64,000 nt of DNA from a bacterium (GCA_963662285.2 CAXXMV010000002.1:1728001-1792000); one strand, 5' to 3'. Numbered from the stretch's first letter, positions 23,321 to 51,015 are shown. The notes: generated by a model from the sequence alone, not told the origin. Numbers and translations: made by a program.

Positions 23321-25378
23321 TTAGTATAATGAAAAATCATCAACCCCGACAGGTAAAACGCTATTTAGGTACTCATGCCTGTCAGAAATGAATTTGCGGA
23401 TGTTATCATATCCTTCCTGGATTAAGCCGCGCCGCTTATCTTCATTTTCACCGGTGTACTCTTCCATCAATTTTATGTCATCCAGCAATAGCGCCTCTTT
23501 CTCATCAACACGGGTTAAAAGCCGCTCTTCGGCAAGCTGATTCTTTAACGCTTGCGCCAATCTTTCTATGTAGGTTTGGTGGAAAGGTTCATGCTTGTGG
23601 ATGAGAGCGGTTATCATTCCTCTAAGAGGACGAGATACATTCCCTTCCTCTCCATTCCCTGTCAAAGGATAATTGATCGATAACTTTGATAAATTATCAT
23701 CATAAACGAAAAAATTACATCCCAATGTATTATCCAGATCCCACGGAATGATCTCCCATCTATTGCTAGGATCGGGATTGTGGTAGAGTACATGGTTTTT
23801 ATGATATCCATCCCAATGAGAAATGAATACAGAGACTACATCATAACAAAGGAATGATTCCTGATCGATACAGGTTTCAATGGTCTCTTGCCGTTCCTCA
23901 TCATTATTCAATAACTGCAATAATTCCTGCAAATCATCATCAGGTTCGTATACATTACTTTTCTTGATATATATTGGATCAATCGCTTTGTAAATATTTC
24001 CGTTCTTATTCCTTCCATGTGATTCAAAAAAATGTTCGTTGGGTCGTTCAATTGCAATAACCTGAAAATGTTTCCCTTCTTGCATAAGCCGATACCATAC
24101 GCATTTGGGTGAAAGGGCAGGAAAATCTTGAAACAAACTGAAAGAAAAATCTTCAAGCAGATTATATAATGTGGTAAAAGTATATTCTTTGGGAACAGGA
24201 TCATTTACAATTTTCAGATTGCGAATTCCAAGATAATCATTATTTTTTAAGAACTTTATTTTATTACCATCAAGAGCTGGCTCGATGCGCGCTCCATCAA
24301 ACAGAAGAACATGGTCTAAAGTCGTTGGTTTAATAACAGCTCCACTAATCAACAAGTCACAATGTCCTTCATCTTGTTCCCGTGGAAACATCCAAAGAAG
24401 CGGTAGTTTGCTGTGGATTTCATCATCATAGACAAAGTAAGAAAAATAGGGGAATGGGTCGCCTGGATGAGGTAATTGGACCTTTCGCTCATCTACCCGC
24501 CGCACTTCAAACCAACATCTAACCAAAGTCTGTGATGGATAGGGAATTATCTCTGACTCAAAAGTAATTGAATCAAGATTATTCTCTTTGATAGACATGG
24601 CGAATGCAGTTGTAACTGTCGCTATGTCCGCGTTCTGTGATTTTGCAATTAAATGAATTGTTACCGATTGGATGATTTCAGGGCTGTCGAATGAGGCCTC
24701 GATTTGTACTGAATCAGTTGATTTTGGATATTCTGGATTGCAATTCATGGATAAGATCAAAGGTTGTTCGGATACATTGAAAACCGTATTTTTCTTTAAT
24801 GGGCTTCCATCAAAAGTCAAAGACGTCCGCCATGAATGGACGTCATTGGAAGGGAGTTCTGAGGAGATTTTTTCCAATGAAAATCCATAACCATCCGCCC
24901 CTCTTGGCCAAGGCAATTCGTCGGTGTATTTTACTTGATCTATAATTTGACCACTCGAATTGCATAATGTAACAGTTTCTCCATCATTTGATAGTTTCCC
25001 TTCATAAGGGCCAAATGTTTTCTCTTGAATTTTCCAATCGTTAAGCATATCTTTTACAACAATAACGAAATCATTGGATTTAATCAGAGAACCTTCGGGA
25101 AAAGTATAAGAAATTCCTTGAGTAAATTGATAATTACTCAAATCAATATCTGCATCTGTTGGATTGTATAATTCGATGAATTCTGGATCACGATTATTTT
25201 TATGGTTGAATATATCTTGATTTGGCAATATAAGGGGGCCGCTTACTCTGGGTATAAAATAATACGGAATTCCCTCAGACGGGTGATAGTGAATTTCATT
25301 AATCACCACATCGCCATAACAGCAGTTAACAGTCAAGTAAAAGAAGCATAATGATATCCCTAAAATAATCCGTTTCAT
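23321..25378 (-). CDS. Secreted lamin-tail-domain + CotH kinase family protein with C-terminal tail motif
   Basis: Signal peptide MKRII..; VVINEIHYHP, EFIELYN, LSNDGE (LTD); WDGYHKN, PWDLDNTLG (CotH); ends VGVDDFSLY. Confidence 0.88.
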   Translation of the reverse strand: MKRIILGISLCFFYLTVNCCYGDVVINEIHYHPSEGIPYYFIPRVSGPLILPNQDIFNHKNNRDPEFIELYNPTDADIDLSNYQFTQGISYTFPEGSLIKSNDFVIVVKDMLNDWKIQEKTFGPYEGKLSNDGETVTLCNSSGQIIDQVKYTDELPWPRGADGYGFSLEKISSELPSNDVHSWRTSLTFDGSPLKKNTVFNVSEQPLILSMNCNPEYPKSTDSVQIEASFDSPEIIQSVTIHLIAKSQNADIATVTTAFAMSIKENNLDSITFESEIIPYPSQTLVRCWFEVRRVDERKVQLPHPGDPFPYFSYFVYDDEIHSKLPLLWMFPREQDEGHCDLLISGAVIKPTTLDHVLLFDGARIEPALDGNKIKFLKNNDYLGIRNLKIVNDPVPKEYTFTTLYNLLEDFSFSLFQDFPALSPKCVWYRLMQEGKHFQVIAIERPNEHFFESHGRNKNGNIYKAIDPIYIKKSNVYEPDDDLQELLQLLNNDEERQETIETCIDQESFLCYDVVSVFISHWDGYHKNHVLYHNPDPSNRWEIIPWDLDNTLGCNFFVYDDNLSKLSINYPLTGNGEEGNVSRPLRGMITALIHKHEPFHQTYIERLAQALKNQLAEERLLTRVDEKEALLLDDIKLMEEYTGENEDKRRGLIQEGYDNIRKFISDRHEYLNSVLPVGVDDFSLY

Positions 25379-25571
25379 ATTTCTCTCCCCCGTGAACAAA
25401 TATTTTAGCGTTCTGTCGATAAAGTATCGCAATATGATTAATTTGTCAGATTGACCAATTGAAATCATTTTGCTATCGTTTGCGCTTTCTGCATGTTGTA
25501 TCTGTTCTCACTGGATTGATGCTGAGTGGTGAGGTGATATAGTTCAGAATAAGATATTATGAAAACAGGAA

Positions 25572-26486
25572 ATGAACATTAATATGACTCAGCCGATTTT
25601 CTCTGATCCCACAGAGGATGCGTTCGTCCTGCAGAAGGGCGCTATGCGTAATGTGCTATTTGAGACTCCTCATTTAGGGCGCATTGTACCCAACGAATTT
25701 AGCGGACATTCACAACTGGTAGATTCAGCCAGGCAGCGCTGGGATAATGGCATCGATAAGGCTGGTGAATACCTGCTCAAGAAAACCGGCGGCGAGTGGC
25801 TGGCTTCAACGGCGTCGCGTATGGTGGTCGATCTCAATCGCGGCGTGGATAGAGTCGATCAGCGGGTCTGCCCGCGTTGGCCGGGGGCGCGCATCCATCA
25901 GGACGGCGGCGTCATAGTTCCTTTTACGCGGAGTAAAAATGGTATGGTTCAGTTGTATTCCGAACCGTTGCATCCCGAAGAGGTGGAGTTTCGACTGAAG
26001 CATTATTGGTATCCATATCACGATGAATTAAACCGACGCTTGAAGATCATGCAGCGTCGCTATGGCAGCGCTATATTGATATGCCTGCACAGCGCTGAAC
26101 CCGAACCGCAGCATCAATGTGGTAAACATCCGGTGGTATACCTTGGAACAGGCAATGGCCAGACCTGCGATGTTGAGATTCTCGGCGCTCTGCGCAATGC
26201 TCTTGAGAAGAGTGATGTGGTGGTTATTTCTGACGGTTATTATCAGGGCGCATTCACCACTCAAGCCTATGGCGTCGAAGAGAATGTTCAGGCTATCCAG
26301 ATTGAATTGGACCGGCGCTATCTTGATACTGAAAAAAACCTATTATCTCAGCTTGAACCTGTCTCGTCAGCACTGACTTCCGTCTCTATTTGTGGAACCT
26401 CTCCAACCTCTTCCAGTGGGAGGCGCCGCGCTTATGGCGCCCGCACCTACGTTGATCCTCTAACTGGCGATGTTTCATTGTATTAG
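25572..26486 (+). CDS. N-formylglutamate amidohydrolase family protein
   Basis: PH.G, SR.VVDLNR, Y..PYH, LHS, LGT, Y.GAFTT..YG, QIELDRRY. Confidence 0.82.
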   Translation: MNINMTQPIFSDPTEDAFVLQKGAMRNVLFETPHLGRIVPNEFSGHSQLVDSARQRWDNGIDKAGEYLLKKTGGEWLASTASRMVVDLNRGVDRVDQRVCPRWPGARIHQDGGVIVPFTRSKNGMVQLYSEPLHPEEVEFRLKHYWYPYHDELNRRLKIMQRRYGSAILICLHSAEPEPQHQCGKHPVVYLGTGNGQTCDVEILGALRNALEKSDVVVISDGYYQGAFTTQAYGVEENVQAIQIELDRRYLDTEKNLLSQLEPVSSALTSVSICGTSPTSSSGRRRAYGARTYVDPLTGDVSLY

Positions 26487-26741
26487 GTAATTGCGCCTGT
26501 TATCATATCTGCCTTATTTTTATATACTTAAAAAATCAATGTAACGTTACGTTGCTTTGGATGTGCTTTTATCTATACAAAATAATATATGAAATATTTT
26601 AATTGCATGTAACGTAATATTGCATCAAGTAGGTATATTACTAAAATAATATTTAATTTGACTTCCATAAATATCCATTTGGCATTATTCTTAGTTGTAA
26701 TGAATTAGTATATTTTTGTTATTTTTATTTTATTTTTTTGG

Positions 26742-27728
26742 ATGCAAGATGCAGGGTTAATATTTATCATGAACAGCCAAGTTTATGACAGCGCCAAAGA
26801 GAAAATACGTAAAGCCTTGGTTTACGAATATCTCAAAAAAAATCCTGGCGTTCGTGAGAAGGATGTCGTTCTGGCCTGTCGAAAAGGTGAACTTATTTTT
26901 ACCGAAATATCCACCATTCTCGCCGATGTAGAATTAAGAGATCAATCCAACCAAATATTCAAACAAGCCAATTCCATGTTCTCTGAATTAGCTATACACC
27001 ATGATCAAAGATGGAGGGATTGCCTGGAATCGAGCCAACATTCAATCCAAATGGTGGTTTGTCTTCATTCGTCAATGTTCTCCTATTTCGATGATGATGA
27101 TAAAAAAGAGCAGGAAAAATTTTTCAATAGAAAAGAAGGGCTTTGCGCACAAATAACTGTCCAGATTCATCAACTTTCTCAAGATATCAAAAGGATGAAT
27201 ATCCAAAAAGTATCACAAGATTCGGTGGCTAAAAGAGAAATTCTTCTACAATATCTGAAACGGGTTGTTGATCAACTGGAAATACTGCATGAAATGTTGA
27301 GTCGAGAAGTGGAATTAGGCGATATCTTTTCCACCCAGACGGAAAAGTACCTTGATATCCAATTCAAAAATATAAAAAAAACTTATACTTTTAATATTAA
27401 TCAGATTACGGATATCTACAAAGCGCTTAAAAACGATAAACGGGCTACCATTGATGCATCGTTGCAATTTAATGAAAGTATTCTTAATTCCACTAAAAAT
27501 ACGCTATTATCCGCGGTTGACAGTATGAAGAAGGATCTAACTATACGTCGAAGTCAAATCCAGGAAATTTGGATGGCGATATCCTCTTTGAGTGATACCG
27601 TCAAGCAAATTGAGAGTATTCAAGAACTGGATAAAGAAGGAAAACTTGATGCTTCGATCTCTTTATCTCCCAATGGAAATCGTATGGTTCGTTTTATGGA
27701 CCGGGTTAAACAGATAATCAAATCTTGA
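26742..27728 (+). CDS. Hypothetical helical/coiled-coil protein
   Basis: 328-aa ORF with no recognisable motif; start may be 26769. Confidence 0.7.
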   Translation: MQDAGLIFIMNSQVYDSAKEKIRKALVYEYLKKNPGVREKDVVLACRKGELIFTEISTILADVELRDQSNQIFKQANSMFSELAIHHDQRWRDCLESSQHSIQMVVCLHSSMFSYFDDDDKKEQEKFFNRKEGLCAQITVQIHQLSQDIKRMNIQKVSQDSVAKREILLQYLKRVVDQLEILHEMLSREVELGDIFSTQTEKYLDIQFKNIKKTYTFNINQITDIYKALKNDKRATIDASLQFNESILNSTKNTLLSAVDSMKKDLTIRRSQIQEIWMAISSLSDTVKQIESIQELDKEGKLDASISLSPNGNRMVRFMDRVKQIIKS

Positions 27729-27733
27729 TCACT

Positions 27734-28999
27734 CTATTCAACAAAGTCACGGCCATCTTTTTTTGATGTTTCCCATTTTTTTGATGTACTGAAAACTTTG
27801 ACTCCATAGGGCGCTATGCGAGTGGTTAATGCGCCATCAAGAATTTCATTTTCCTGGCTGCCGTATAATTCAAATAACGTTTTACCTTCTAATTGATCCA
27901 AGCCGTTCAGTTCTACTCCCATGTGCCATACGTCATCTTCATTGACCAGGATAATCAACCAATCATCGGCAATACGGCGGACTGAAGATGATACGCCACG
28001 TATGTCTTTTTCTTCATCCGGTATTTCAGCCAGATTGATGTTCGGATTTCCCTGTTCGGGAGCGGTGAGAAAAGGTTGCAGGGATGCTAATTCGCTGGTT
28101 AGGGCGTAAACTGATTGACGGAATTGATCGCTTTTTAAGTAAGCGGAACCCCAATATAAGATGCCATTGGCGCCATGAGTGATTACGTTATAAGCCATGA
28201 ATCTTGATTCATCAAATGTTGGATAGGCAGTCTCTGTTGCTCCATAATAGTCGCCTAATTCGTTCCAGGAGAAAGCCTGTAGAACCATCCAGACCGGCTT
28301 GCCTTTGCCAACAATTTGCCAACGATCCACGGCCTGACCCATTTTATAGACGCGCCGTTTATCTTTTTTGACGGGATATATATCACAACCAGTGATATCT
28401 ACAAATTTGAGGTACTGCCGGACGTAATGCAAGTCGCTTTCCAGCGCCTCATTGATCCAGACAGGTCTATTGTTATTATCAAGTTTTCTGATGAGTTCAA
28501 CAGCGTCGCGCATGTTGGGTATGATGGTCTTGGCTTTTTCACGGGAGTATTCGACTGCGGTTGGCGTTTGCTTCCACCATGCTCCGGGTTCTTTGTGGAT
28601 TTTTTGAGTGCGATAGAGCATACTGGCCGCTGTGAAATTCCAGGCAATTTCATCGGGGCCTTCCCAGACGGCTAGAGCGGGATGGTCTTTTAATTCGAGG
28701 ATGGTCTGCTTCAATTGATCGGTGGCGCCATTTTGAAGAGGCAACGATATGACGCCTTTGATGCCTACGGCATGAATCCTATCAAGGTCTTTTTTCGCAC
28801 TACACCTGATCAGGTTGATTCCAGATTCAGCCATTCTTTGCAGGTCAGCGTCTTCTTCGGGTAGTTCATAGAATCCAAGCGGGAACAGCGTTTTGGCATT
28901 ATTTTGAATCAGACCATTTTGGTCTGCGGTAGATAGAATCGTAGTGAAGAAAAGCATAATTAGTATGATAGATATACTGGAAAACAACTTTTTCATCAT
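27734..28999 (-). CDS. Secreted hypothetical protein with glycoside-hydrolase-like TIM barrel
   Basis: Signal peptide; FPLGFY, HPAL.VWEGPDE, DITGCDIYP, KPVWMVLQAF, HGANGILYW. Confidence 0.72.
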   Translation of the reverse strand: MMKKLFSSISIILIMLFFTTILSTADQNGLIQNNAKTLFPLGFYELPEEDADLQRMAESGINLIRCSAKKDLDRIHAVGIKGVISLPLQNGATDQLKQTILELKDHPALAVWEGPDEIAWNFTAASMLYRTQKIHKEPGAWWKQTPTAVEYSREKAKTIIPNMRDAVELIRKLDNNNRPVWINEALESDLHYVRQYLKFVDITGCDIYPVKKDKRRVYKMGQAVDRWQIVGKGKPVWMVLQAFSWNELGDYYGATETAYPTFDESRFMAYNVITHGANGILYWGSAYLKSDQFRQSVYALTSELASLQPFLTAPEQGNPNINLAEIPDEEKDIRGVSSSVRRIADDWLIILVNEDDVWHMGVELNGLDQLEGKTLFELYGSQENEILDGALTTRIAPYGVKVFSTSKKWETSKKDGRDFVE

Positions 29000-29180
29000 C
29001 GGATCTACTCCTGGAATGGTTGGATATTATGGTGTGCGTCTTATTTTATAATATTATTTATTATTTGAGATATCTAGAGCGATTCTCAAAATAACGTGCG
29101 TTAATGCGGTTTCAATACGCATATATTTTTGTTAACCGCTATAGTAGAGCGTTTCACTTGGTATGTCCGGTGGTGGTTTA

Positions 29181-32500: not shown

Positions 32501-34852
32501 TTACTTGTGCTGCATCCACTTATTACATTGGGTTTCGTCGCTTTTATTGACATGGAAATTCATGGTAGATATTTCAACTCCATCGGCTAATGTATAAGGC
32601 GCGTCGCTGAAATTAACTGTTATTATGGTTCCATTATCAAATTCCGTCTGCTGTATGCTGCGGTCAGCGGTCAAGAAACGGTGATCGGTCATTTCGCTGT
32701 AACCGACGCTGCGAACTATAGGGCATACATTCTTATAACTCTGCACGAAACGGTCTTTATTTTCATTCCATATTGCCTTGTTGAACATGAACATGGGGGG
32801 AGTGGCGTAGAGGATATTAAACAGGTCGCGTTTATCCCATAGACTTGGTAGTTTGTTATTGTAATCTCCCCAATACCATTGCGCGACGACGCAATCATGA
32901 TAAACCAGTTCCCAGAGCGGCAGTCGGTAATCATGACCGAGTTGGAATTTTGCAACTCTCTCAGGAACCTCATCCCAGATATCCTGAATATGTCTTCCCG
33001 CATCTGGAACGCGGTAAGGCCCCAGGCTGAGCATTCCTTCAAAATAATGCGCGAATGGAACCGCCGCATCGTGTCCCGTCTCTGAACCGCATACCAGCTT
33101 CATCTCTTCCGAAACCAGGCGCAGCAGCTCCATTTTCCAAAAGCGGCTTTCGCTGCGCGTCATGGGGTGGTCGGGATGATAATCCTCGCGCCACGGACTG
33201 GCGGTGGTGGTATCAATAAAACGCGAGCGGTAAGCATGGGTTTGCAACTCATTCGATATGCGAGGGCGGGCGTAATCCAACGCTTTGCAATCGCTCAACA
33301 CTCCGCAGGGATACTTTTTCCCATCTTTGCCCGTCACTTCCCAGCCGCGCCGCCAGTCGCCATTTTTATCCAGCATGATATCATCCGGCCACCCGTCTGT
33401 AGTCCAATCCGGGTGGACGCCATTGAGATACTGGAAATAATCGGGATTCATTAAATCCTGATAAATATCATAGCGGCTGGTTAATACATTACGCTGATTC
33501 ATCTGTTGAATATTATTGGGAGATTCACGGTGGCTCCACAGAATACGTTCGATGCCCAATTGCTGCATCTCATTAACATAACTCAGCGCCCCATCCCAAC
33601 ACCAGACGTTGACCGCTCCGATAAGTAGATCGACATTAGGATTCTCTTCACGCTTTTTGGCAAGTGTTTTGAATATCCCGGTTTCCTGCGCATGAGCGCG
33701 GTAACGCTTGCACATGGCGACATGGCCGCCTTTATCGAAAAAGACGTAGCGAATCCTGCGCGGGTAGCCGAATTTTCCTTTTTGAGAATCCCATTCGGGA
33801 GCGACGCAGAGCAGATCATTGATTCTCGTGATGCGGATAGCGGCGTCATCAGCTGTTTCGAGAATAGCCATGTGTCCAGCTGCGCCATCAGTAGCGCCCC
33901 AGAACCCCATGCAAATGCCATGACCTCCATAGCCAATCAGGCGGCCTGTATTAATGGTCAAGTCATCAACCGGATAAGATATCCCCTCGTTCATGGGAAT
34001 AACCAGATAACTCTCTTTATCGGTAACGAAGGGATTCGGGAATGAAAGCGAACCGGGTAAATCCCCGGCGCCGGTAATGGTTAGAAGCAGTTCAGGGCGT
34101 GATTGCGCGATTGCGAATGTGACATTTACATCAGCCCCGGTCTGGGCGTAAAACCAGGTTGTATCCAAACGGTCTTCATTTACCTCAGCGCTTTTTAAGA
34201 CCATCATGTCGTGGTATGGTTGCTGCTCCCATATCTGACTGGTTCTGGAATCTTTAACCTTCAGGATTCCGGTCTCAACCTCCAGATCAACTGATATCAG
34301 AGCATTTTTGAAATTGATGATGTCGGGCAGGTCGCTCCGGAAATCGCTGATGTTACCCTCTTTGGTCAGTTTGAAATCATCGATCCACACCGTGGCCGGA
34401 CCATGTCCTATGATGCGTGGATATATTTTCTGAACATTATGAGGAACGAAAAAGCGGCTGGTCAAATGATTCCAGTCTTGGTCGCCGCTCAGGTTTTGTC
34501 CGGCGTAACTCCACTCGATAACTTCATCATTTTCATCGCGGGTTATCACGCAAATCTCAGCGTTTCCTGTACCGGTGATTTTGATCCATCCATCAAGTAT
34601 AAAGAAATCGCCGTTTCTAACATCAAAATTGACGCCGGGATTAAAACTCCAATCCTGGGCGCCGCTATGTTCAATGCGGGCGGAGTTATTTCCGGTATGA
34701 ACCACATCATTATCAATGCTTACGCTTCCAACTCCCGCATCGCGCGTCCAGAGTGATCCCCAACCTTGCATGCCTGATTCAAAGTCGCCATTGGGAACCA
34801 GGTTGGTCGCGCTAATTACTGTGATAAATGATAAGGCCGCCAGAAATGTCAT
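32501..34852 (-). CDS. Secreted CBM4/9-like domain + glycoside hydrolase (DUF5696/GH129-like) with C-terminal tail motif
   Basis: NLVPNGDFESG..W..WIDD (CBM); RYDIYQD, FIDTTTA, GSETGHD, PLWELVYHD; ends TQCNKWMQHK. Confidence 0.8.
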   Translation of the reverse strand: MTFLAALSFITVISATNLVPNGDFESGMQGWGSLWTRDAGVGSVSIDNDVVHTGNNSARIEHSGAQDWSFNPGVNFDVRNGDFFILDGWIKITGTGNAEICVITRDENDEVIEWSYAGQNLSGDQDWNHLTSRFFVPHNVQKIYPRIIGHGPATVWIDDFKLTKEGNISDFRSDLPDIINFKNALISVDLEVETGILKVKDSRTSQIWEQQPYHDMMVLKSAEVNEDRLDTTWFYAQTGADVNVTFAIAQSRPELLLTITGAGDLPGSLSFPNPFVTDKESYLVIPMNEGISYPVDDLTINTGRLIGYGGHGICMGFWGATDGAAGHMAILETADDAAIRITRINDLLCVAPEWDSQKGKFGYPRRIRYVFFDKGGHVAMCKRYRAHAQETGIFKTLAKKREENPNVDLLIGAVNVWCWDGALSYVNEMQQLGIERILWSHRESPNNIQQMNQRNVLTSRYDIYQDLMNPDYFQYLNGVHPDWTTDGWPDDIMLDKNGDWRRGWEVTGKDGKKYPCGVLSDCKALDYARPRISNELQTHAYRSRFIDTTTASPWREDYHPDHPMTRSESRFWKMELLRLVSEEMKLVCGSETGHDAAVPFAHYFEGMLSLGPYRVPDAGRHIQDIWDEVPERVAKFQLGHDYRLPLWELVYHDCVVAQWYWGDYNNKLPSLWDKRDLFNILYATPPMFMFNKAIWNENKDRFVQSYKNVCPIVRSVGYSEMTDHRFLTADRSIQQTEFDNGTIITVNFSDAPYTLADGVEISTMNFHVNKSDETQCNKWMQHK

Positions 34853-34889: not shown

Positions 34890-36605
34890 TTAATGCATCA
34901 GCCAGTTTTGGATATTGGTAAAGTCTGAATTGACCGCCGGAACCAGCAGGTGCGATGGATACTCGGGCGATAGATGCAGGGTAGTTATGGCTTCAGCCGG
35001 GTTGCCGTCCTGACCCAATGCTTGATAAAGCGGATTAAGATCAAAACGGGGATAATTGGTATTGGCGATGATGATGCGCATACGGTGTCCTTGATTGAAA
35101 ATAAGGCTGGTGCTCCAGCAATCTACCTCGTATTTATATACTTCGCCTGGAGTGATAGATGACGGATCTGTTTGCGAATCACGGAAACTGGCGCGGGCGA
35201 CGCCGTCGCAAACCAGCATGGAACGGCCATCGGGATATACATCAGTTACCCGGACGGTAAGGTCGTTGTCTGTTAGATTCGTGGCGGCATATAGAATGGC
35301 TTTGATGCGACCGGTTATTTCGAGCGGCTTATCCAACGCCGCAGTGCTGAAGACCAGCACGTCATTGCGATTCTCGAGGGTTGTTTGATCTTGTGGGCCT
35401 GCGGAAATTTCAAGATTGGCGCCGCCCTTGGTTGTAACCGGGGCGGTAGGATTCATTTGCAATTGGCTGGTTTGGGATGCTTCAGGAGCATTGATAGAAA
35501 GGGCGCCATCCTGCTGCAAATAAAAGGCGACCTGCTGGGCTTCAATGGGCCATACATCACTGGTGCGCCATTCATTGCCTGTGGCGTCAGCCGCATCAAC
35601 GTCGCCCATGACATAATATCTGACTGCTGGTTCGCTCATGATGCCATTGGCGGTTCCCTTCATCCAGTAATCGTAAAAATCGATGGTTATATCGAGTTCC
35701 TCTTCAAATTGAGAATTGGCGGGGTAAGTCAATTGTCCCTGCTGCGCTTCGAATTCATTGACGTGAGTCCATGGACCCATAACCAGTTTCTGGTTATTCC
35801 TGGCGCCTTCGGCGCCCAGGGTTTGCCGTCCGGTAAAACCGCTTAATGTTCCTTCTTGGAAGCAATCATACCAGCCGCCGACAAATAAGGCGGGGACGTT
35901 AACCTCCGCATGTTTTGAAGCAATGTCCATTTGCGCCCAGAAATCATCATAGGTTTTATGTTCTTTAAAAAGTGGTAGATGTTTCGTCAAGCCAGTTCCG
36001 GCGAACCATCCTTCGATTAGAGATTTACGGAAAACGCCGTTTTGATATGCGGCTTGACCGTACATGGTTGTCGGTGCGTAACCTATGACCTGACAAACCA
36101 GATGCGGTGGAAGAGTCGGCGCCATCAGATTCTGAGTGATGCCCATGGCAGATGGACCAAAGGTTCCAACTTTGTCATTGCACCATGACTGCGCCGCAAT
36201 CCACTCAACCGTATCGTATCCATCCTGGTTGTCGCCCCAACCATCATTGACGAAAACCATGTCGTCGCCTTCAGAGTCATAGCGCCCCCGTACATCCTGA
36301 ATCACCAGGGCATAGCCCTTCAACAGAATTAATTGCAGCATCTCCAGGCTTTCATCATCTTTTCCATAAGGCGTGCGGATTAATATAGTGGGAAACGGCC
36401 CGCCCAAAGGCGACTTATGCACGGTGGTTGATAGTTTGGTTCCATCACGCATGGGAACCATGTGAGTTTCATCAAATATCCCCTGTTGCCGCATCTTGGC
36501 GTTCCATTCATCATAAGAGAACGGCTTGGTTTGTTTTGAATATGCTTGATTGACAAAAGTTATAACTAGTAAAATTAACAATAGTCCCGGAATTTTCTTC
36601 ATCAC
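34890..36605 (-). CDS. Secreted CocE/NonD family hydrolase with C-terminal tail motif
   Basis: VPMRDG, RTPY, QDVRGR..SEG, GPSAMG (Ser), GGWYD, GPWTH; ends TNIQNWLMH. Confidence 0.92.
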   Translation of the reverse strand: MMKKIPGLLLILLVITFVNQAYSKQTKPFSYDEWNAKMRQQGIFDETHMVPMRDGTKLSTTVHKSPLGGPFPTILIRTPYGKDDESLEMLQLILLKGYALVIQDVRGRYDSEGDDMVFVNDGWGDNQDGYDTVEWIAAQSWCNDKVGTFGPSAMGITQNLMAPTLPPHLVCQVIGYAPTTMYGQAAYQNGVFRKSLIEGWFAGTGLTKHLPLFKEHKTYDDFWAQMDIASKHAEVNVPALFVGGWYDCFQEGTLSGFTGRQTLGAEGARNNQKLVMGPWTHVNEFEAQQGQLTYPANSQFEEELDITIDFYDYWMKGTANGIMSEPAVRYYVMGDVDAADATGNEWRTSDVWPIEAQQVAFYLQQDGALSINAPEASQTSQLQMNPTAPVTTKGGANLEISAGPQDQTTLENRNDVLVFSTAALDKPLEITGRIKAILYAATNLTDNDLTVRVTDVYPDGRSMLVCDGVARASFRDSQTDPSSITPGEVYKYEVDCWSTSLIFNQGHRMRIIIANTNYPRFDLNPLYQALGQDGNPAEAITTLHLSPEYPSHLLVPAVNSDFTNIQNWLMH

Positions 36606-36857: not shown

Positions 36858-37451
36858 ATGAAAAAAGGATTTACGCTAATTGAATTGCTGATAGTCGTTG
36901 CGATTATTGGCATTCTGGCAGCCATCGCAGTACCAAACTTTTTGAACGCGCAGATCAGGGCGAAATGCGCACGGGTTGTTTCGGATATGAAAACTATCGA
37001 AACAGCGTTATCGATGTATCGACTGGATAACAATGCTTTTCCACCAGCGAACCTAGCTCGCGTGCCGGGAAGCGGTGATCATTATCATCCCAATGAAATT
37101 CGCTTCTACCGTTTGACGACTCCAGTTTCTTTTATGAGTTCCGTCCCGAAGGATCCATTCGCCAATACAGCCAACCAAGCAGATTTTGCTCAGTGGGGTT
37201 CAGCCTATGATTACGTCAATAATTATGGCGGCGAGCATAACGGCGGATGGGGTCATGTCTGGCGCTTAAACAGTTGGGGGCCGGACACAGTTAACGGTTG
37301 GGGCGGTCAACGTACTGGTACATGTCCTGGCGGCGTTCCAGATTTTATTTATAACACATCTAATGGTCTGGTCAGTGTTGGAGACATCGTTTGGGTTGGC
37401 GCTAAAGATTCTCAGACAACCAATTTCTGCAATATCATCAATGGCATTTAA
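36858..37451 (+). CDS. Prepilin (type IV pilin / GspG-like)
   Basis: MKKG|FTLIE class III signal; PNFLNAQ, LTTP..DPF, SWGPD, YNTSNGLVSVGDI. Confidence 0.92.
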   Translation: MKKGFTLIELLIVVAIIGILAAIAVPNFLNAQIRAKCARVVSDMKTIETALSMYRLDNNAFPPANLARVPGSGDHYHPNEIRFYRLTTPVSFMSSVPKDPFANTANQADFAQWGSAYDYVNNYGGEHNGGWGHVWRLNSWGPDTVNGWGGQRTGTCPGGVPDFIYNTSNGLVSVGDIVWVGAKDSQTTNFCNIINGI

Positions 37452-44188: not shown

Positions 44189-44773
44189 TCAAATTCCGAT
44201 CAAACTTTTATCGCAGGGATAAGCGGTTGGCGGCCCCAGGCGGTACATGTCGCCCCAGCTGCGCAGGCCGTTGGATGCATTATAGAGCGGCGCCGTGCCA
44301 TAGGTATCCGCGTTGTTATCCGGTCCAGCGCCGGAGATTTGCCATTCAGAGCAGCGCAGGCTGCTGCCAACTATGGCCTGTTTGCCATTATGAATTACAG
44401 ACCATGCATCTACGTAATCATAAGTAACATAGGCTTCATGCTGGTTTGCAACAATGCGCTGGCCGTATCGCGATTTCAAGAAAGGGTCTTGGGGGACGGA
44501 GGCGATATAGGATATTGGCGTAGTTAAGGGGATCAGGCGCCGGTTGACTGGATTGATGTTGACTCCATCGGGGCCGACGAATAGGGGATAGCGGTTGTTA
44601 TCCAGGCGGTACATCTCCAGCGCGGTTCCAATGGATTGCATTTCCGATTCGGCTTTGGCGATTTGCGCCCTCACCTGCGCGTTTAAGAAATTGGGCACGG
44701 CGATAGCGGCCAACACGCCGATTATGGCGACTACGATTAATAATTCGATTAGAGTGAAACCTTGGTTATTCAT
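44189..44773 (-). CDS. Prepilin (type IV pilin / GspG-like)
   Basis: MNNQG|FTLIE; PNFLNAQ, LTTP..DPF, GAGPD, YNASNGLRSWGDM; RBS agggag. Confidence 0.92.
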   Translation of the reverse strand: MNNQGFTLIELLIVVAIIGVLAAIAVPNFLNAQVRAQIAKAESEMQSIGTALEMYRLDNNRYPLFVGPDGVNINPVNRRLIPLTTPISYIASVPQDPFLKSRYGQRIVANQHEAYVTYDYVDAWSVIHNGKQAIVGSSLRCSEWQISGAGPDNNADTYGTAPLYNASNGLRSWGDMYRLGPPTAYPCDKSLIGI

Positions 44774-44808
44774 GAATCGCTCCCTACTAGATTTTTTTTC
44801 TATATTTG

Positions 44809-44852
44809 GAGAAAAAAACCTCAATAAATCGAGAAAAAAACCTCAATAAATC
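44809..44852. repeat. Perfect 22-bp tandem duplication
   Basis: gagaaaaaaacctcaataaatc x2. Confidence 0.9.
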
Positions 44853-45061: not shown

Positions 45062-45095
45062 CCCTCTCCTAGCCTCTCCCAATCTTGGGAGAGGA
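45062..45095 (+). repeat. Family C (BoxC-like) repeat
   Basis: ccctctcctagcctctcccaatcttgggagagga; same loop as 58414. Confidence 0.8.
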
Positions 45096-45113
45096 ATACT
45101 CAATCCAAAGTTT

Positions 45114-45510
45114 CTATTCTAATAAACCGGATAGATGCTCCAGGCTTTTCTCGGCCTGTTCAGGGGTGCCGCATTCTACTGAGAAGACGATGTCGTTGGG
45201 GGTTTTGGCGCTGACTATGTCGATGATCCTGCGCCAGTCCAACACGCCTTCGCCGCAGGCGCATCCCACCGGGGTTCCGGTTACAGCGCCTTTTTCAGCG
45301 TCGGAGTGTTCCACCGAAATATCCTTGGCGTGGAGATGCACCAGACGTCCCGCCACCCGCTCCAGCCACTGATAGACGTCGTGGCCGCATAAGTAGGCGT
45401 TGCCCGTATCGAAATTGATGCCGATGGCCGGTGAATCGACCAGGTCGTAGATGCGGTCCAAGCCATCAGGCGTCTTGGAGTACTGGGCGTGCGGTTCCAG
45501 CCCGATTTTG
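45114..45510 (-). pseudogene. 5'-truncated sugar phosphate isomerase/epimerase (AP_endonuc_2) fragment
   Basis: Reads KIGLEPHAQYSKTPDGLDRIY..INFDTGN..HLHAKD..GEGVLDW..SVE; N-terminal half of the barrel and a start codon are missing. Confidence 0.8.
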
Positions 45511-45543
45511 GGGGATTTTAAGGATCAAGTGAATTTAAATTTC

Positions 45544-45579
45544 CCCCTTACCCTAGCCCTCTCCCGGCGGGAGAGGGGA
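45544..45579 (+). repeat. Family C (BoxC-like) repeat
   Basis: ccccttaccctagccctctcccggcgggagagggga. Confidence 0.85.
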
Positions 45580-45632
45580 TAGTGTTGCTCGACATAATAA
45601 ATATGTAAAACTACCAGGAATAATCATCAAAT

Positions 45633-45657
45633 GTAGGGGTAACCCTTGTGGTTACCC
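45633..45657 (+). repeat. Family B GTAG-type REP
   Basis: gtaggggtaacccttgtggttaccc. Confidence 0.85.
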
Positions 45658-45682
45658 GATTATGCATTCCCTTTAGTTTTCC

Positions 45683-45714
45683 GATGGGACGCGCTGGCGA
45701 TTTGTCCAACCTAC
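45683..45714 (-). repeat. Family D REP-like repeat
   Basis: gatgggacgcgctggcgatttgtccaacctac. Confidence 0.5.
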
Positions 45715-45735
45715 TTAATGACATCGCCTTGAGGT

Positions 45736-47112
45736 TTACTCATCCCACATGGCGTTGATTAACTGCACGGTTTTATTGACCAGTACCTGCCCGCCTTCCG
45801 GGCCGACTACGTATTTATCAGCGCTGTATCCGCCTCCCTGAGTGGCTTTTTCGGTTGGTAGATAACCGTTGTTCTGGCTGGATAATTGAACCAGAAATGT
45901 TAATAGCGCCTTGCTCCGGGCTTTTATACGGACGCCGTAATCCAGATATAGTTCAAAGGGATTAGTGGCGATGGCCATATCTCCCAGACGTAATATATGC
46001 AGTTCGACGGCATCCGTCGGTTCGGTGTTATAGAAAGGCGCAAGCGAAGGGTCGACGGTAGGGAGGCTGATTTCTACTGACGCATGTTTGAAAACCATTT
46101 TGGTGTCAATCTCTTTTTTGGCCAGAGGCATAACGTCATCCACAGCGTTGACGATGCGGCGGGCGATCTCGCGGCGACGTGATAATCCTCTTCGTTCTCT
46201 CATGGCTTCTTCGGCGCGTTTATTGAACATCAGATGCGGCGACAGGTCTCCTGCAGCGGAGCATTGGGGCAAGATGAAAATATCCGGTGAATAGCGTTTT
46301 TTCAATTCCAACCTTACTTCATGCCAGAAATCGGCTGAGATGTCGCTTAGGCCTTCGGTCTCCTGCGAGGTGCAGGCGATGTTGATTATCATGCCGCTTA
46401 GTTGACCGTTCCTGTTCCAGAAGAAGAGCAGGTTTACGCTGTGATCTTCATAGCCTTCCAGGTTGGAAAATTCATCTTGATCGGTTTTGCCATACATGAC
46501 GGTTGTACCATCGAAATAGTGCGCCCGGCGGTTCATGCCCACTACAGCGTGTCCCAAGCCCCAACTCATGCCGCCCGGCTGCCGGTTTTTCCAGGCTTTG
46601 ACGACGGTCGGAGCAACGCGCTCTAAAAAGAAGTCGGCGTATTCCGAAGCCTTCATGACGCCTTCGTCATTGCTGACGTCGTAGAGTCCCTTGTAGGCGC
46701 CGTCAATGAATCCGGGACCGGTATGGGTGTGAGTGGCGTTTAAGAATAACTTTGATATATCAAAATCGGGGATTAGCTCTTTAACCTGCTGGCGTAGGCG
46801 TTGTTGGATCACTTTTTTGATCGAGATGACGTCGCACGAAACCATGATGGCCTGCTCGGATGAGCCATTCTCTCCACGGGTTTCTAAAGCCAGAACTGTG
46901 GCGGTTAGTGGATCAAGCACCGATTTGGAAATTCGCTTGTGTAATTGACCTGTCAGGGCAATCGGCTTCTGCGGCGTTATATCCGCAGCCGCCCACCCGA
47001 CATAAAGCGGCATATTCAATTCTTGCTGTGTTTGCTCTGATGCATTGGTTATTTCATTAACACAAAAACTCAAAGTTAATAATACCACCAACACCTGTAG
47101 ATAATTTTTCAT
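45736..47112 (-). CDS. Secreted neutral-ceramidase-like hydrolase
   Basis: Signal peptide; GWAAADITP, DPL.AT.L, NATHTHTGP, NRR, ISADF, GDLSP, PFELY, GYLPT, GGYS. Confidence 0.78.
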   Translation of the reverse strand: MKNYLQVLVVLLTLSFCVNEITNASEQTQQELNMPLYVGWAAADITPQKPIALTGQLHKRISKSVLDPLTATVLALETRGENGSSEQAIMVSCDVISIKKVIQQRLRQQVKELIPDFDISKLFLNATHTHTGPGFIDGAYKGLYDVSNDEGVMKASEYADFFLERVAPTVVKAWKNRQPGGMSWGLGHAVVGMNRRAHYFDGTTVMYGKTDQDEFSNLEGYEDHSVNLLFFWNRNGQLSGMIINIACTSQETEGLSDISADFWHEVRLELKKRYSPDIFILPQCSAAGDLSPHLMFNKRAEEAMRERRGLSRRREIARRIVNAVDDVMPLAKKEIDTKMVFKHASVEISLPTVDPSLAPFYNTEPTDAVELHILRLGDMAIATNPFELYLDYGVRIKARSKALLTFLVQLSSQNNGYLPTEKATQGGGYSADKYVVGPEGGQVLVNKTVQLINAMWDE

Positions 47113-47149
47113 GATTCCGGCTCCATTTTACAAAACTCTAAAACAACAC

Positions 47150-48469
47150 TTAGCCCTTTAATGTCCAGGGGGCGCGCATAGGCCGCGACAACATCGCGTT
47201 GGCCTGGTAATCGTCAATGAATGTTTCCTGCTCAGGATTCCAGTTCAACTTACGGCCCAGGCGGGTGGCTATATTTGATAGTTGACAAAGGGTATCGGAA
47301 TGAACCGCAGTATCTACCGGGCTTATGGTTTTGGCGCGGCTTTTAACTGCATCCAGGAAGTGGCGGTAATGATCGGCGCTTTTGGTAAGGTTAATTTCAT
47401 CCTGGCCGATTGTGGTTTTGAGCAATGATTTGGGATTGGCGTCAATGCCGCTGCGGTTTACATGCACCCAGCCCCGGCTTCCTTCAAAACGCACGCCTTG
47501 TTTGCTTCGGCCCTTATTGTCGGTGTAGATCATGGTAACGCCATTGGCATATTTGAATTCCAAATCCCATTTCATACAGCAATTAGCCATGCCTTTTTCG
47601 GGGAACTCTCCATTGCCTTCTACGCTGATGGGGGTTGTATCATCGGTTCCATTACCCCATTGGGCGATATCCAGATGATGAACGCCCCAGTTGGCGATGA
47701 AGCCCAGGCAATAATCATTGATATGATACCATGTGCTATAACTCTCTTTATCATTGTGGGGGCGGCAGCGCTGGTAGGAGTATGGCGCCTTGGCCGCTGG
47801 TCCCAACCACATGTCGTAATCCAAACCATCCGGCACGGGAATAACCGGGTCTTGCGGAATCGGCCAGCTGGCCGGGGCGCCGACGTAGATGGTTTTAAGT
47901 TCTCCAATGCGTTGGTTACGGGCTAATTCACAGGCGAAACGGAAATTTTCATCCGAGCGCTGCTGAGTGCCGAATTGGAAGACGTTTTTGTTCTTATGAA
48001 TGGCGGCCCGCAGAGCCTGCCCCTGCTCCATACTAAGCCCGACGGGCTTCTCATAATACATATCCTTACCGGCGCGGGAAGCCGCCAATCCCGCCAGGAC
48101 ATGCCAATGATCCGGTACGGCCAGGCTTACCGCATCGATATCCTTACGGGCCAACAACTCGCGGAAGTCGTTATAGACCTCGCAATCCTGGTTGACGTAA
48201 TAATCATCAACGATCTTTTTGGCTTTATCGCGCTGCCCTTTATCCACGTCGCACACCGCCGCCACGATTGCATCATCATGCCTGAAGAACTGCCGCATGT
48301 TTTTCACGCCGCGAATGCCCAGACCGATGCTGCCGATAACGATCTTGTCACTAGGCGCAGTCGCGCCGTCTTTGCCCAACGCAGATGATGGAATGATGGT
48401 GGGGAAACAAACTCCACTGGCTATCATAGACGTAGTTTTTATAAACTGACGTCGCTTTATAGTATTCAT
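47150..48469 (-). CDS. Tat-exported Gfo/Idh/MocA oxidoreductase
   Basis: KRRQFIK; IGLGIRG, PDHWH, YEKP, GTQQRS, NWGVHHLD. Confidence 0.92.
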   Translation of the reverse strand: MNTIKRRQFIKTTSMIASGVCFPTIIPSSALGKDGATAPSDKIVIGSIGLGIRGVKNMRQFFRHDDAIVAAVCDVDKGQRDKAKKIVDDYYVNQDCEVYNDFRELLARKDIDAVSLAVPDHWHVLAGLAASRAGKDMYYEKPVGLSMEQGQALRAAIHKNKNVFQFGTQQRSDENFRFACELARNQRIGELKTIYVGAPASWPIPQDPVIPVPDGLDYDMWLGPAAKAPYSYQRCRPHNDKESYSTWYHINDYCLGFIANWGVHHLDIAQWGNGTDDTTPISVEGNGEFPEKGMANCCMKWDLEFKYANGVTMIYTDNKGRSKQGVRFEGSRGWVHVNRSGIDANPKSLLKTTIGQDEINLTKSADHYRHFLDAVKSRAKTISPVDTAVHSDTLCQLSNIATRLGRKLNWNPEQETFIDDYQANAMLSRPMRAPWTLKG

Positions 48470-48669
48470 GTTGATTCCTTTTTGATAATAAGATAATGCG
48501 CATCTATACAATGCAATCCGAAAATATGGATTCATCTTATCAAAAAAGGGATTGGATTAATATAGGGTATTTGATAAAAGTAGGAGAAAAAATTGGCTTT
48601 TACGAAAACCTAACTTGATAATGCAAGAATATAATCTCTCTATCATTCCTTTTCTTTATAAAACGCAAA

Positions 48670-49215
48670 TCAAATCCCCGCATAGTCATTATCAATCAAC
48701 GGATTGGTCTTATCGCGTTGGGAGAGTTCCGTGATTTCTTCTGGCCATTTTATGCCCAGTTTGGGGTCGTTGTAGCGGATTCCGCCCAGGTGGTCGGGGC
48801 TGTAGTAGTTGGTGGTGAAATAGATTACTTCGGTGTTTTGTTCCAGGGTTTGGAATCCGTGGGCGAAGCCTTCGGGGATGTAGAGCATGGTCATGTTTTC
48901 TTCGGAAAGGATTTCTCCTTGCCATTGCAGGAAAGTTGGTGAATCTTTCCTGATATCCACCGCCACATCAAAAATGGCGCCTCTGACGCATTTAATGACT
49001 TTTACTTCCGCTTCTGGTGGATATTGGAAGTGAAGGCCCCGCAGAGTTCCTTTTCCCGCGTTTCTGGTATGATTGACTTGGATAATAGGTTTAGTTAAAC
49101 CGATCTGATCCAATTCATGTTGGGTGAACACTTCAGAGAAGAATCCCCGGTTATCTTTAATAATTTGCGGTTGGCAAATGAATAGGTCTTTTATTTTAGT
49201 ATCAATAATTTTCAT
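48670..49215 (-). CDS. rfbC: dTDP-4-dehydrorhamnose 3,5-epimerase
   Basis: DNRGFFSE, GTLRGLHFQ, DVAVDIRKDSPTF, PEGFAHGF, NDP.LGI.WP. Confidence 0.93.
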   Translation of the reverse strand: MKIIDTKIKDLFICQPQIIKDNRGFFSEVFTQHELDQIGLTKPIIQVNHTRNAGKGTLRGLHFQYPPEAEVKVIKCVRGAIFDVAVDIRKDSPTFLQWQGEILSEENMTMLYIPEGFAHGFQTLEQNTEVIYFTTNYYSPDHLGGIRYNDPKLGIKWPEEITELSQRDKTNPLIDNDYAGI

Positions 49216-49359
49216 ACGGTCTCTTTAGGTGAATGTTGTGTAGTGTTGAACCTTATCTTAATGGAATTGAAACGTATTTTAAATAGCGGCAATATTGGTT
49301 TTACGCTTAAATGCTATATAGATATGTAATAAATAATCTGGTGATGATAAGAAAATTTA

Positions 49360-49398
49360 TTGACAAGAGCCAGTTATAATCGATAGAATCAACTGGCT
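49360..49398 (+). promoter_or_regulatory. Candidate sigma70 promoter with overlapping inverted repeat
   Basis: TTGACA (49360) -18 nt- TAGAAT (49384); agccagtt/aactggct inverted repeat spans the -10 box. Confidence 0.4.
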
Positions 49399-49617
49399 TT
49401 GCTCAAGTATGCTTAGATACTCTTTGGATTTAGGTAATCCCGATTAACAAACCAAAAGCAAAAATGAATGCCATTGTGTTCAGCATTTTAAATGTTTTAT
49501 ATCGATTGTATTGTTTTCAGTAAAAAACGTTTGTTTTATAAAAGTTCCCTATTATGCATAAGTAGTTTCTATAAAATAGAATTTATAAATTCATACTTAT
49601 TAAAAAGGAGAATGGAA

Positions 49618-51015
49618 ATGGGTAAAAAGTTTTGTCTATCAGTAATGATGTTATGCATCATAGCGGTTCCGGCATCTATGGCTCAGAGTCTTACCTACGA
49701 GATAAGTGAACCTGTTATATTGGGGGATCTTCTAACGGCGCGGGCCAATATGTCGATAAGCACTCATGAACCTATAGCGCTTCTGGTTACAGTGGACACT
49801 TCCAATTATTATGAATTCGCCGATCCCATCACGGGCGAAATCGCACAGGCTGCGGTTTTGGGATTCTTTTACAATACCATCACGCTTGAACCTATTGGCG
49901 AACCGTTCATCATCGTGGGGAATCCCGGCAGTGATTTTGATACTCTGGATGTGGATTACAACCCCGTCTCACAGCAATACATTGTCGCAGCCTCCGCGAA
50001 TAATTATCTTCCCGGGGGAGGCCAGGCCAATTTACTCTCCATCGTCAGTTCATCCACCGCCGAACCAGTTGTCAAAGCCTGGGTATACGAACCGGACAGC
50101 GCAGAAAGCTTTGACGATATCGCCGTCAGTTGCAGTTCTAACAACGGCAACATTCTGATGGTTTCAGAACGTAATTTTGCAGGTGAAGGCGAAGGCGTCA
50201 TCGGAGCGCTTTTTGATCAGGATGGAAACCTCCTGACTCCAAATTTCGGACGGCTCGATCAACTCCAGCCGACTGGTGATGAAGATGATCCTGACGTCGT
50301 GTTCCTGCCCGTTAACGATGTCTTTCTGTTTTTAGTGAACACCGATGATGGCACTTATCAAGACCGGATAACCGGCGCGGTCATTTTGCCTGTGCCTGAT
50401 GCGGACGGTAATATGCAAATCGGTGAGCAGCAGATTTTGGGATCCGAACGTAAACCAGCTACAGCTCAAGGCCATCCGGCAGCCATCGAGAATCCTTTTA
50501 ACAGCGAACTGGTCGGCGTATTCGATTACTCCAATGGCGCTGATGGCGGCGATGTATTCTACTTCACGGTTGGCGGCGCCCCGGATTATGTCCTATCCGA
50601 AGCCCGCGATCAGGTTGCTTACCTTGAAGCCGCTGGCAGTAATCCGGTCAACCAGCGCCACCCCCAACTCGCCGCCGATCCCAGCAGCGGCGTAATAGTA
50701 GTCGCATACAACGTCAACAATGATACCAATGCGCTCGAGGCAGGCGGCATTCTATTCACTGTCTTGGGGCCGGATGGCGGGGTTTTGCCTGACAACGGAA
50801 ATTCGGTCGGGACGGATCAGGTCATCTATAAAATGACGCCGGATGAATTAGGAGTCATCAGCAATGACGCCAATAACTATAACATGCTCTACGATCCTCA
50901 CAGTGATTCGTTTATTTGCGTCTATGCCACCAACGAACAATACACCAAAGCTGTTCGTCTGAAGATCACTTCAAATCATCTACCCGTGAGCGTTGATTCG
51001 TGGATGTTGCATTAG
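49618..51015 (+). CDS. Secreted acidic beta-propeller-like protein with C-terminal tail motif
   Basis: aaggag RBS; signal peptide MGKK..SMA|Q; about seven repeated blade-like motifs; ends VSVDSWMLH. Confidence 0.8.
   Translation: MGKKFCLSVMMLCIIAVPASMAQSLTYEISEPVILGDLLTARANMSISTHEPIALLVTVDTSNYYEFADPITGEIAQAAVLGFFYNTITLEPIGEPFIIVGNPGSDFDTLDVDYNPVSQQYIVAASANNYLPGGGQANLLSIVSSSTAEPVVKAWVYEPDSAESFDDIAVSCSSNNGNILMVSERNFAGEGEGVIGALFDQDGNLLTPNFGRLDQLQPTGDEDDPDVVFLPVNDVFLFLVNTDDGTYQDRITGAVILPVPDADGNMQIGEQQILGSERKPATAQGHPAAIENPFNSELVGVFDYSNGADGGDVFYFTVGGAPDYVLSEARDQVAYLEAAGSNPVNQRHPQLAADPSSGVIVVAYNVNNDTNALEAGGILFTVLGPDGGVLPDNGNSVGTDQVIYKMTPDELGVISNDANNYNMLYDPHSDSFICVYATNEQYTKAVRLKITSNHLPVSVDSWMLH

Follow-up and report, generated by a model that had tools for sequence, protein, structure and literature searches.

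C-terminal sorting signals are of a known kind. In the tripartite signals, such as LPXTG/sortase, PEP-CTERM/exosortase and GlyGly-CTERM/rhombosortase, a short motif is followed by a transmembrane helix and a basic cluster, and cleavage takes place in the membrane. The C-terminal domain (CTD) of the type IX secretion system (T9SS; Por_Secre_tail, PF18962/TIGR04183) is folded and spans about 75 profile positions, and the WxL domain (PF13731), found on surface proteins of monoderm Firmicutes, is a whole domain with two motifs. PTS1 (peroxisomal targeting signal 1, SKL-COOH) and KDEL are very short motifs at the free C-terminus of a folded protein, which are read by a soluble or a membrane receptor. 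For type II secretion (T2SS) we know of no linear signal. Here we consider a 64 000-nucleotide stretch of bacterial DNA (GCA_963662285.2 CAXXMV010000002.1:1728001-1792000), hereafter called the window, in which a first-pass annotation, made from the sequence alone, had noticed a similar nine-residue tail at the very end of four secreted proteins and had proposed that it is an undescribed sorting signal. The analysis reported below, extended to the whole genome and to other lineages, leads us to think that there is somewhat better than an even chance that this tail is a linear C-terminal signal, read in trans, which sets the fate of Sec-exported proteins beyond the periplasm.

A terminal motif on exported proteins

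The genome to which the window belongs (7.29 Mb in 8 contigs, 44% G+C, 92.5% complete) was represented by 5429 greedy longest non-overlapping open reading frames (ORFs) of at least 80 amino acids, a crude set covering 88% of the DNA. Study of their C-termini revealed a strong excess of the tail: the pattern derived from the four window proteins, once anchored at the C-terminus, matched 60 of the 5429 ORFs, compared with 0.05 expected from its internal frequency, and a tighter pattern, [VI]xxWx[LMI][YH] at the end of the chain, matched 89 ORFs against 0.14 expected. The scores given by a position-specific scoring matrix (PSSM), iterated on the last 12 residues, were bimodal, and 143–146 ORFs stood above 10–12 bits where 0.4 would be expected. 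The genome-wide motif reads P-T-[SAPD]-[VI]-x-[DNE]-W-[SME]-[LIM]-[YFH]-COOH. If the last residue is taken as position 0, then the conserved positions are 0, -1, -3, -6 and -8 (among 143 tails: Y 87, F 25, H 22 at position 0; L 85, I 32, M 12 at -1; W 136 at -3; V 112, I 27 at -6; T 96 at -8). Position -4 is D, N or E, position -2 is the most variable among the last four (S 51, M 28, E 27) and, upstream of -8, the information content is at most 0.7 bit.

The location of the motif is just as constrained. When a nine-column version of the matrix was scored at every ORF position, the motif occupied the very C-terminus of 146 ORFs, and in 23 others it was followed by a single residue, mostly E, D, N, Q or K. 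Other sites were one at offset 2, one at offset 6 and 18, mostly weak, in the remaining 2.14 million positions. In total, 170 of the 5429 ORFs (3.1%) carry the tail at the last or second-to-last residue, with about 0.4 expected, and in these about 170 ORFs the tag must be terminal. There is a single strong non-terminal copy: an 803-amino-acid protein with a signal peptide (G000 C2:537179-539590) contains ..MSVPVNDWSIH internally, at 22.6 bits, followed by 139 residues, which may reflect a fusion downstream of a former C-terminus.

Carriers of the tail are nearly always predicted to be exported. According to a hydrophobicity heuristic of our own, 154 of the 170 tail ORFs have a signal-peptide-like N-terminus, compared with 1733 of the 5429 ORFs overall (odds ratio 22, p = 1e-59); among the 16 exceptions, inspection by eye found at least six with an evident signal peptide, and one more with a Tat-like N-terminus. 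The near-confinement to signal-peptide proteins that had been noticed in the window therefore holds for the genome, and the same proportion sets these proteins apart from those bearing the C-terminal signal of type I secretion, which lack an N-terminal signal peptide. No significant bias was seen for the lipobox, present in 6 of the 154 tail proteins and in 117 of the 1579 other signal-peptide ORFs.

The carriers are also diverse. Single-linkage clustering of 146 tail proteins on blastp matches gave 82 clusters, the largest with 42 members. When 20 tail proteins from outside the window were scanned with Pfam, 10 had no family, and the others included WD40, beta-lactamase fold, Laminin_G_3, CBM9-like, CarboxypepD_reg + SGBP_B_XBD, beta-helix and LRR + tyrosine phosphatase proteins, with weaker matches to DUF11, LRR_adjacent and Reelin subrepeat B. 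If the CotH, S15 peptidase and ConA-like carriers are added, the observation that one tail goes with unrelated folds is borne out. That the tail can be present or absent on a given protein is illustrated by the CocE paralogues that lack it: they end at the domain boundary. AlphaFold2 (AF2) gave the CocE protein of the window a mean predicted local distance difference test (pLDDT) score of 93, with residues 563–571 below 50 and in coil, and an unnamed two-domain tail protein, P0125, a mean of 77. In both models exactly the last nine residues fall below 50 and have no secondary structure. The tail is thus modelled as a flexible add-on after the last domain, in agreement with the short, strictly C-terminal and modular tag that the first-pass annotation had described.

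Carriers in the window and in other genomes

Translation of the four ORFs of the window reproduced the exact C-terminal residues described for them (Table 1). Among the 53 ORFs of the window that were scored, however, only the CotH protein, the CocE hydrolase and the fourth protein passed the PSSM, so that the claim of one tail shared by four proteins stands for these three and not for the GH129-like glycoside hydrolase. Since the latter fails the PSSM and 0 of 150 top-ranking representatives of this family carry the tail, its C-terminus would be, at best, a decayed copy of the tail. The representatives shown mostly end near a ..GFxV.. segment, and P0002 has this same segment immediately ahead of its 13-residue extension. 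Paralogues of the LTD-CotH protein elsewhere in the genome end in ..PTPVSNWSLY or ..PVPVSDWQLY. The fourth protein, which had been called propeller-like, matched no Pfam or NCBIfam family, and an Atlas look-up brought leads at 0.85 only, under 0.9, so its fold is not established. As had been pointed out, the tail is absent from the cytoplasmic proteins of the window and from its GH127, GH43, DUF6807, ceramidase-like and FG-GAP/ASPIC proteins; the scan of the window also found two GspG-like pseudopilins, to which we return below.

Table 1. Tail proteins, their C-termini and pseudopilin genes in the window (positions counted from the first nucleotide of the window)
Feature	Position	Strand	Basis
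LTD + CotH protein, 715-amino-acid ORF, signal peptide	23321..25468	-	Pfam; PSSM 17.6 bits
Tail of LTD-CotH, ..LPVGVDDFSLY-stop (VGVDDFSLY codons, then stop)	23324-23350	-	translation
GH129-like glycoside hydrolase, C-terminus ..SDETQCNKWMQHK	32501..34852	-	Pfam; PSSM -5.3 bits
End of GH129-like protein, ..TQCNKWMQHK-stop, dubious, degenerate tail with one extra residue ('+1')	32504-32533	-	
CocE/NonD hydrolase (peptidase S15 + PepX_C), signal peptide	34890..36605	-	Pfam/NCBIfam; PSSM 16.9 bits
End of CocE, linker + tail NSDF-TNIQNWLMH (tail codons)	34893-34919	-	translation
GspG-like pseudopilin, 197 amino acids, divergently adjoining the CocE tail gene	36858..37451	+	PF07963 (N_methyl); 82-copy family
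Second GspG-like pseudopilin, same family	44189..44824	-	PF07963 + PF08334 (N_methyl + T2SSG)
Secreted protein without family (fourth protein)	49492..51015	+	PSSM 22.3 bits
Tail of the fourth protein, VSVDSWMLH (..LPVSVDSWMLH-stop)	50986-51012	+	translation

To follow the tail in other genomes we used a strict DNA pattern, [TP]x[VI]xxWx(NTN)[YH]-stop, with the reversed pattern as control; taxon names are those of the record labels, and on this basis the phylum of the window is called Hinthialibacterota/OLB16. In the genome of the window this pattern has 64 sites, compared with 8 when a non-stop codon replaces the stop, which corresponds to a sensitivity of about one third (64 sites for 170 ORFs). 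The survey of the same phylum comprised 33 genomes at least 80% complete, all of one class. Within the family of the window's genome, 20 genomes gave 10–64 matches each (reversed-pattern control, 0–7). In the same order 12–30 matches were found in four of five well-covered genomes and 7 in a sixth, 77% complete, and other families of the phylum gave 2–28. The background, estimated from five unrelated genomes, is 1–6 matches. Among the matches listed in a collection-wide scan with a narrower pattern, the assemblies with several matches were labelled Candidatus Sumerlaeota, Omnitrophota, 'bacterium' and, in one case, 'Candidatus Hinthialibacteria bacterium OLB16', and the single matches were scattered over unrelated taxa.

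In the second phylum, to which two assemblies labelled Sumerlaeota belong, 15 of 61 genomes had 5–18 matches and 14 had none, with controls at 0–3. Examination of the loci around the matches in two of these genomes brought 14 tail ORFs, at least 9 of them with an obvious signal peptide. Nine of the 14 have no blastp homologue in the genome of the window, and therefore the tag has spread over different proteins in each phylum; only two have a tail protein as best match there. The genomes without any match can still hold looser tails, e.g. ..AAVADWQLF or ..DQTGWMLY. With a pattern that finds about one third of the tails and a background of 1–6 matches, presence or absence is too soft a character for co-distribution profiling. 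To judge from these patterns, the tail appears to be present throughout its own phylum and patchy in the second one. It was not found on CocE homologues from unrelated phyla, nor was it equally frequent on cytoplasmic proteins, two outcomes that would have spoken against a sorting role.

The CocE hydrolase provides an instructive comparison. Among its 120 best homologues, 19 passed the tail PSSM; 17 of them belong to the 40 closest (50–85% identity), a group in which several other proteins show looser endings of the type W-x-x-[YHF]. The remaining two, P0044 (55% identity) and P0087 (in the form with one extra residue), are more distant. The closest homologues, where a source name is given, come from Omnitrophica/Omnitrophota or 'bacterium'. 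Other homologues at 45–50% identity mostly end just past ..HPSHILLPV or carry the T9SS CTD; the CTD-bearing ones are about 645–660 amino acids long, with Por_Secre_tail + FlgD_ig, and some are labelled KSB1. In this orthogroup, then, the tail occupies the slot of a known secretion/attachment signal. Because of this shared position, a sorting role for the tail gains indirect support. As for the T9SS itself, Por_Secre_tail had no match above cut-off in the genome of the window (one sub-threshold match reached 26.1 bits, the cut-off being 27), and SprA had no match in this 92.5% complete assembly, with a model that matched 0 of 14 control genomes too. Three distant CocE homologues, P0087, P0105 and P0114, end in ..SNWAIYR, ..SRWVLYR or ..SNWRFYR, a related W-x-x-Y-R ending that may represent the form taken by the tag in a different lineage.

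Pseudopilin neighbours and candidate readers

When the genes around tail genes were surveyed without bias, one family stood out, that of the two pseudopilins of the window. It has about 80 copies genome-wide, of 175–255 amino acids, which share an almost identical N-terminus and, at the C-terminus, a conserved motif, NG-x-x-S-x-G-[DE]-hydrophobic. Its GspG-like character is indicated by the presence of the prepilin methylation motif together with the T2SSG domain, and most of the listed homologues of one member, P0126, carry both. A tail gene lies within three genes of 29 of 78 pseudopilin genes (p = 1e-6) and is the immediate neighbour of 17 of 82, compared with 5.0 ± 2.2 for random genes (3.4-fold; the maximum in 2000 draws was 15). 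In 16 of 18 pseudopilin-tail gene pairs both genes point the same way, and they are separated by -3 to 301 bp or, in one case, by 810 bp. Among the signal-peptide-like neighbours of pseudopilins, 18 of 72 have the tail, compared with 154 of 1733 genome-wide. In the second phylum 6 of 18 tail genes have a pseudopilin at a distance of 5 kb or less (4/9 and 2/9 in the two genomes; pooled binomial p = 0.024), and orthologues of the P0125/P0126 pair perhaps lie together in three other assemblies, to judge from the equal lengths of their longest contigs. Prediction, with alignments, of a complex between tail protein P0125 (residues 27–441) and pseudopilin P0126 (residues 33–198) gave scores of 0.01 and 0.00, which speak neither for nor against an interaction. 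We also correlated tail counts in the second phylum with a DNA pattern for the pseudopilin C-terminus (0–13 per genome; Spearman -0.03), but this test is invalid, because the pattern misses the NG-T variant of that phylum, where protein searches give 28–61 matches per genome. In the window itself, an ORF of 431 amino acids without Pfam family (13409-14704, + strand) has a C-terminus, ..SNGLSSRGDISAY, that corresponds to the C-terminal motif of the pseudopilin family, although it is twice as long as the members of this family and apparently has no prepilin N-terminus.

Candidates for a reader of the tail were sought among secretins, PDZ proteins and families of neighbouring genes. There are eight secretin genes, distributed in several clusters resembling those of T2SS, type IV pili and Tad, and none is near one of the seven PDZ loci. 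One of them (L127; G000 C8:417780-431653) encodes a 1057-residue secretin with N-terminal TPR repeats and STN; its neighbours are a PilM-PilN fusion and two Cohesin-domain proteins that have signal peptides. As a tail-specific reader this TPR-STN-secretin (L127:2643-5816:-) had to be rejected: almost every one of the 61 second-phylum genomes has a long-frame homologue, even where the pattern finds nothing. It may still play a role, because such genomes can hold looser tails. Another candidate, a 642-amino-acid ORF without Pfam family located after a 975-amino-acid GspD (L125:2944-4872:-), has no homologue at E ≤ 1e-6 in the same 61 genomes and was rejected on the strength of this query. At a further locus (L124; G000 C1:558832-576410) a GspD-type secretin is apparently split into two ORFs, one with N0 + Secretin_N and the other with Secretin, with a histidine kinase next in line; 8 kb downstream there is a tail protein with DUF1349. 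Among the PDZ proteins, an 813-amino-acid secreted protein (L121; G000 C8:28298-30739) shows an unusual pairing of a right-handed beta-helix (DUF5123/GH141-like) and a C-terminal PDZ. Five ORFs of 133–178 amino acids, which by eye look like Hsp20, all lie within three genes of a tail gene, at two loci only (G000 C6:1386610-1387493 and C8:307686-309246). These and the other neighbours considered, a 24-member family ending in ..GFR[LV] and sensor kinases, are all weak candidates or unannotated.

Possible functions and relation to known signals

At this point we may propose how a trans-read sorting signal of this kind would work. The protein would be exported to the periplasm and fold there, and its flexible extension of 9–10 residues, which ends in W-x-[LIM]-[YFH]-COOH, would be read by a putative receptor. 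This receptor would decide whether the protein crosses the outer membrane or is kept at the cell surface, and the tail would thus play, in Hinthialibacterota and part of Sumerlaeota, the role that the T9SS CTD or PEP-CTERM plays in other phyla. Three elements of this scheme are what we infer rather than observe: reading in trans, control of localisation, and a T2SS or type IV filament machine with pseudopilins. If the tail adopts an extended strand, then T-8, V-6, D/N-4 and Y0 are on one face and W-3 and L-1 on the other, and the conservation of both faces suggests burial in the groove of a partner rather than the classical 0/-2 mode of PDZ ligands. It is conceivable, though on balance unlikely, that the tail is a PTS1-like signal for outer-membrane secretion, captured by a component of the T2SS/type IV filament machinery, with the GspG-like paralogues, often encoded in the operon of the cargo, acting as adaptors or carriers.

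Other explanations must be weighed against a sorting signal. One is that the tail acts only after export, not as a translocation signal but as a non-covalent, minimal dockerin-like tether which would attach enzymes and lectins to a surface scaffold, to a pilus fibre or to each other. The presence of a terminal, flexible tail on carbohydrate-active and binding proteins is in line with such docking, as are the conservation of both strand faces, expected for a strand buried in a partner, the pseudopilin genes adjoining tail genes and the two cohesin-domain proteins beside the secretin cluster. But a stable tether of only nine residues would be very short, we identified no scaffold in which acceptor modules are repeated, and the slot taken by the tail in CocE is that of an export signal, though the CTD also leads to surface attachment; we see docking as a possible but rather doubtful explanation. 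We give less credit to a tag read by the PDZ domain of a periplasmic protease of the HtrA or S41 (CtpA-like) type, which would degrade unsecreted copies, trim a C-terminal propeptide or sense secretion stress. PDZ domains do bind free aromatic C-termini, such as the Y-x-F end of outer-membrane proteins (OMPs) in the case of DegS, CtpA does remove short C-terminal extensions, and potential readers are present in the genome: four HtrA-like proteins, a CtpA-like S41 protease, RseP and an odd secreted beta-helix-PDZ protein. However, the key side chains of a PDZ ligand are at 0 and -2, and here conservation extends over nine residues with -2 variable. Furthermore, 23 proteins tolerate an additional residue, proteases of these families occur almost universally while the tail is restricted to certain lineages, and the C-terminus of a genuine OMP encoded here is the usual ..YKF. 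Such a tag is therefore unlikely in our opinion.

Two further possibilities can be given very little weight. The tail might be the final strand of a C-terminal domain common to its carriers, or a folding element acting in cis, as could be imagined from the many carriers that end in ConA-like/beta-sandwich domains, with ..DN[VFI]xV.. ahead of the tail. This idea is largely refuted, and we hold it to be very improbable: the sequence upstream of -9 is not conserved, the domain preceding the tail may equally be an alpha/beta-hydrolase, CotH, WD40 or beta-helix domain, AF2 leaves the tail unstructured, and paralogues and orthologues fold without it. Even less can be said for an OMP beta-signal-like motif handled by the beta-barrel assembly machinery, or for chance and compositional convergence. 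The terminal aromatic recalls the beta-signal, but position -2 is S, M or E instead of hydrophobic, there is no glycine at -5 and the carriers have soluble enzyme folds; chance is excluded by the number of terminal motifs compared with expectation and by conservation across two phyla.

Several observations nevertheless weigh against a trans-read sorting signal, or at least against the machinery that we suppose to serve it. No reader was identified among the secretin, PDZ and neighbour-family candidates of the genome. The proteins with one extra residue indicate that a free carboxylate exactly on the aromatic is not required. The comparison with the T9SS CTD concerns one orthogroup only, and presence or absence according to the DNA pattern is unreliable because of the looser tails in genomes where it finds nothing. 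As for the pseudopilins, they adjoin only 18 of the 170 tail genes, their adjacency could simply reflect islands of secretome genes, and their family is about as large in second-phylum genomes without the strict pattern (28–49 matches) as in tail-rich ones (43–61). The route through GspG-like pilins advanced in the first-pass annotation thus has adjacency in both phyla in its favour and the size of the family in pattern-free genomes against it, and it can be called suggestive only.

The question is of some consequence, since the way in which folded proteins are chosen for passage through the outer membrane or for display is open outside the type 5 and type 9 systems. The tag marks about 3% of the ORFs, mostly enzymes and binding proteins related to polysaccharides, and it does so in two uncultured phyla believed to break down complex glycans. 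Should its role be in sorting, then the exoproteome of these bacteria is predictable from sequence alone; the tag also defines a peptide bait for a new receptor and could serve as a portable secretion or display tag. The PTS1-like mechanism, if true, would make it the first linear targeting signal for the T2SS/type IV filament class, common to two candidate phyla without T9SS-type signals. Were it a tag for recognition by a protease, it would still single out many extracytoplasmic proteins as one large regulon, controlled together.

No existing sorting-signal model in Pfam or NCBIfam matched the tail, as the first-pass annotation had supposed. The CTERM models of NCBIfam, in particular, gave no match with the four whole proteins of the window (E ≤ 1) or with the last 40 residues of eight tail proteins (E ≤ 10), bearing in mind that short models of this type may be lost to the HMMER filters. 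We found no description of the tail in the literature searched, and in the paper naming the phylum (PMC9324843) the term 'C-terminal' has 0 occurrences.

Comparison with the individual systems likewise confirms that the tail is unlike PEP-CTERM, LPXTG, GlyGly-CTERM, the T9SS CTD and the OMP beta-signal. Like the T9SS CTD, it marks a subset of the exported proteins and closes the chain of folded, Sec-exported proteins, enzymes as well as adhesins, that come from many families, but it has only 9–10 unstructured residues where the CTD is folded and about 70–100 amino acids long, and the Por_Secre_tail model had no match in 24 tail proteins scanned. Like the LPXTG, PEP-CTERM, GlyGly-CTERM and MYXO-CTERM signals, it is a short C-terminal motif, lineage-restricted and present in many copies on many unrelated exported proteins; in contrast to the tripartite organization, at most one residue follows the motif, which leaves no room for a transmembrane helix. 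The OMP beta-signal and the Y-x-F end that activates DegS resemble it by a terminal aromatic in a hydrophobic neighbourhood and by their occurrence in a diderm periplasm, but the beta-signal alternates at 0, -2 and -4, a spacing different from that of the tail, whose carriers, an alpha/beta hydrolase and beta-sandwiches, are not barrels. With the WxL domain it has in common a W-x-L motif near the C-terminus of surface-associated proteins, and that domain had no Pfam match in the same 24 proteins. In its way of working the tail would be closest to PTS1 and KDEL, from which it differs by kingdom, compartment, sequence and length (nine residues instead of three or four), so that no homology is implied. 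As a sorting signal the tail would belong to a known kind of element; it differs from all those tested in being a nine-residue unstructured peptide with neither a membrane anchor nor a folded domain, and it looks like an undescribed address or docking label.

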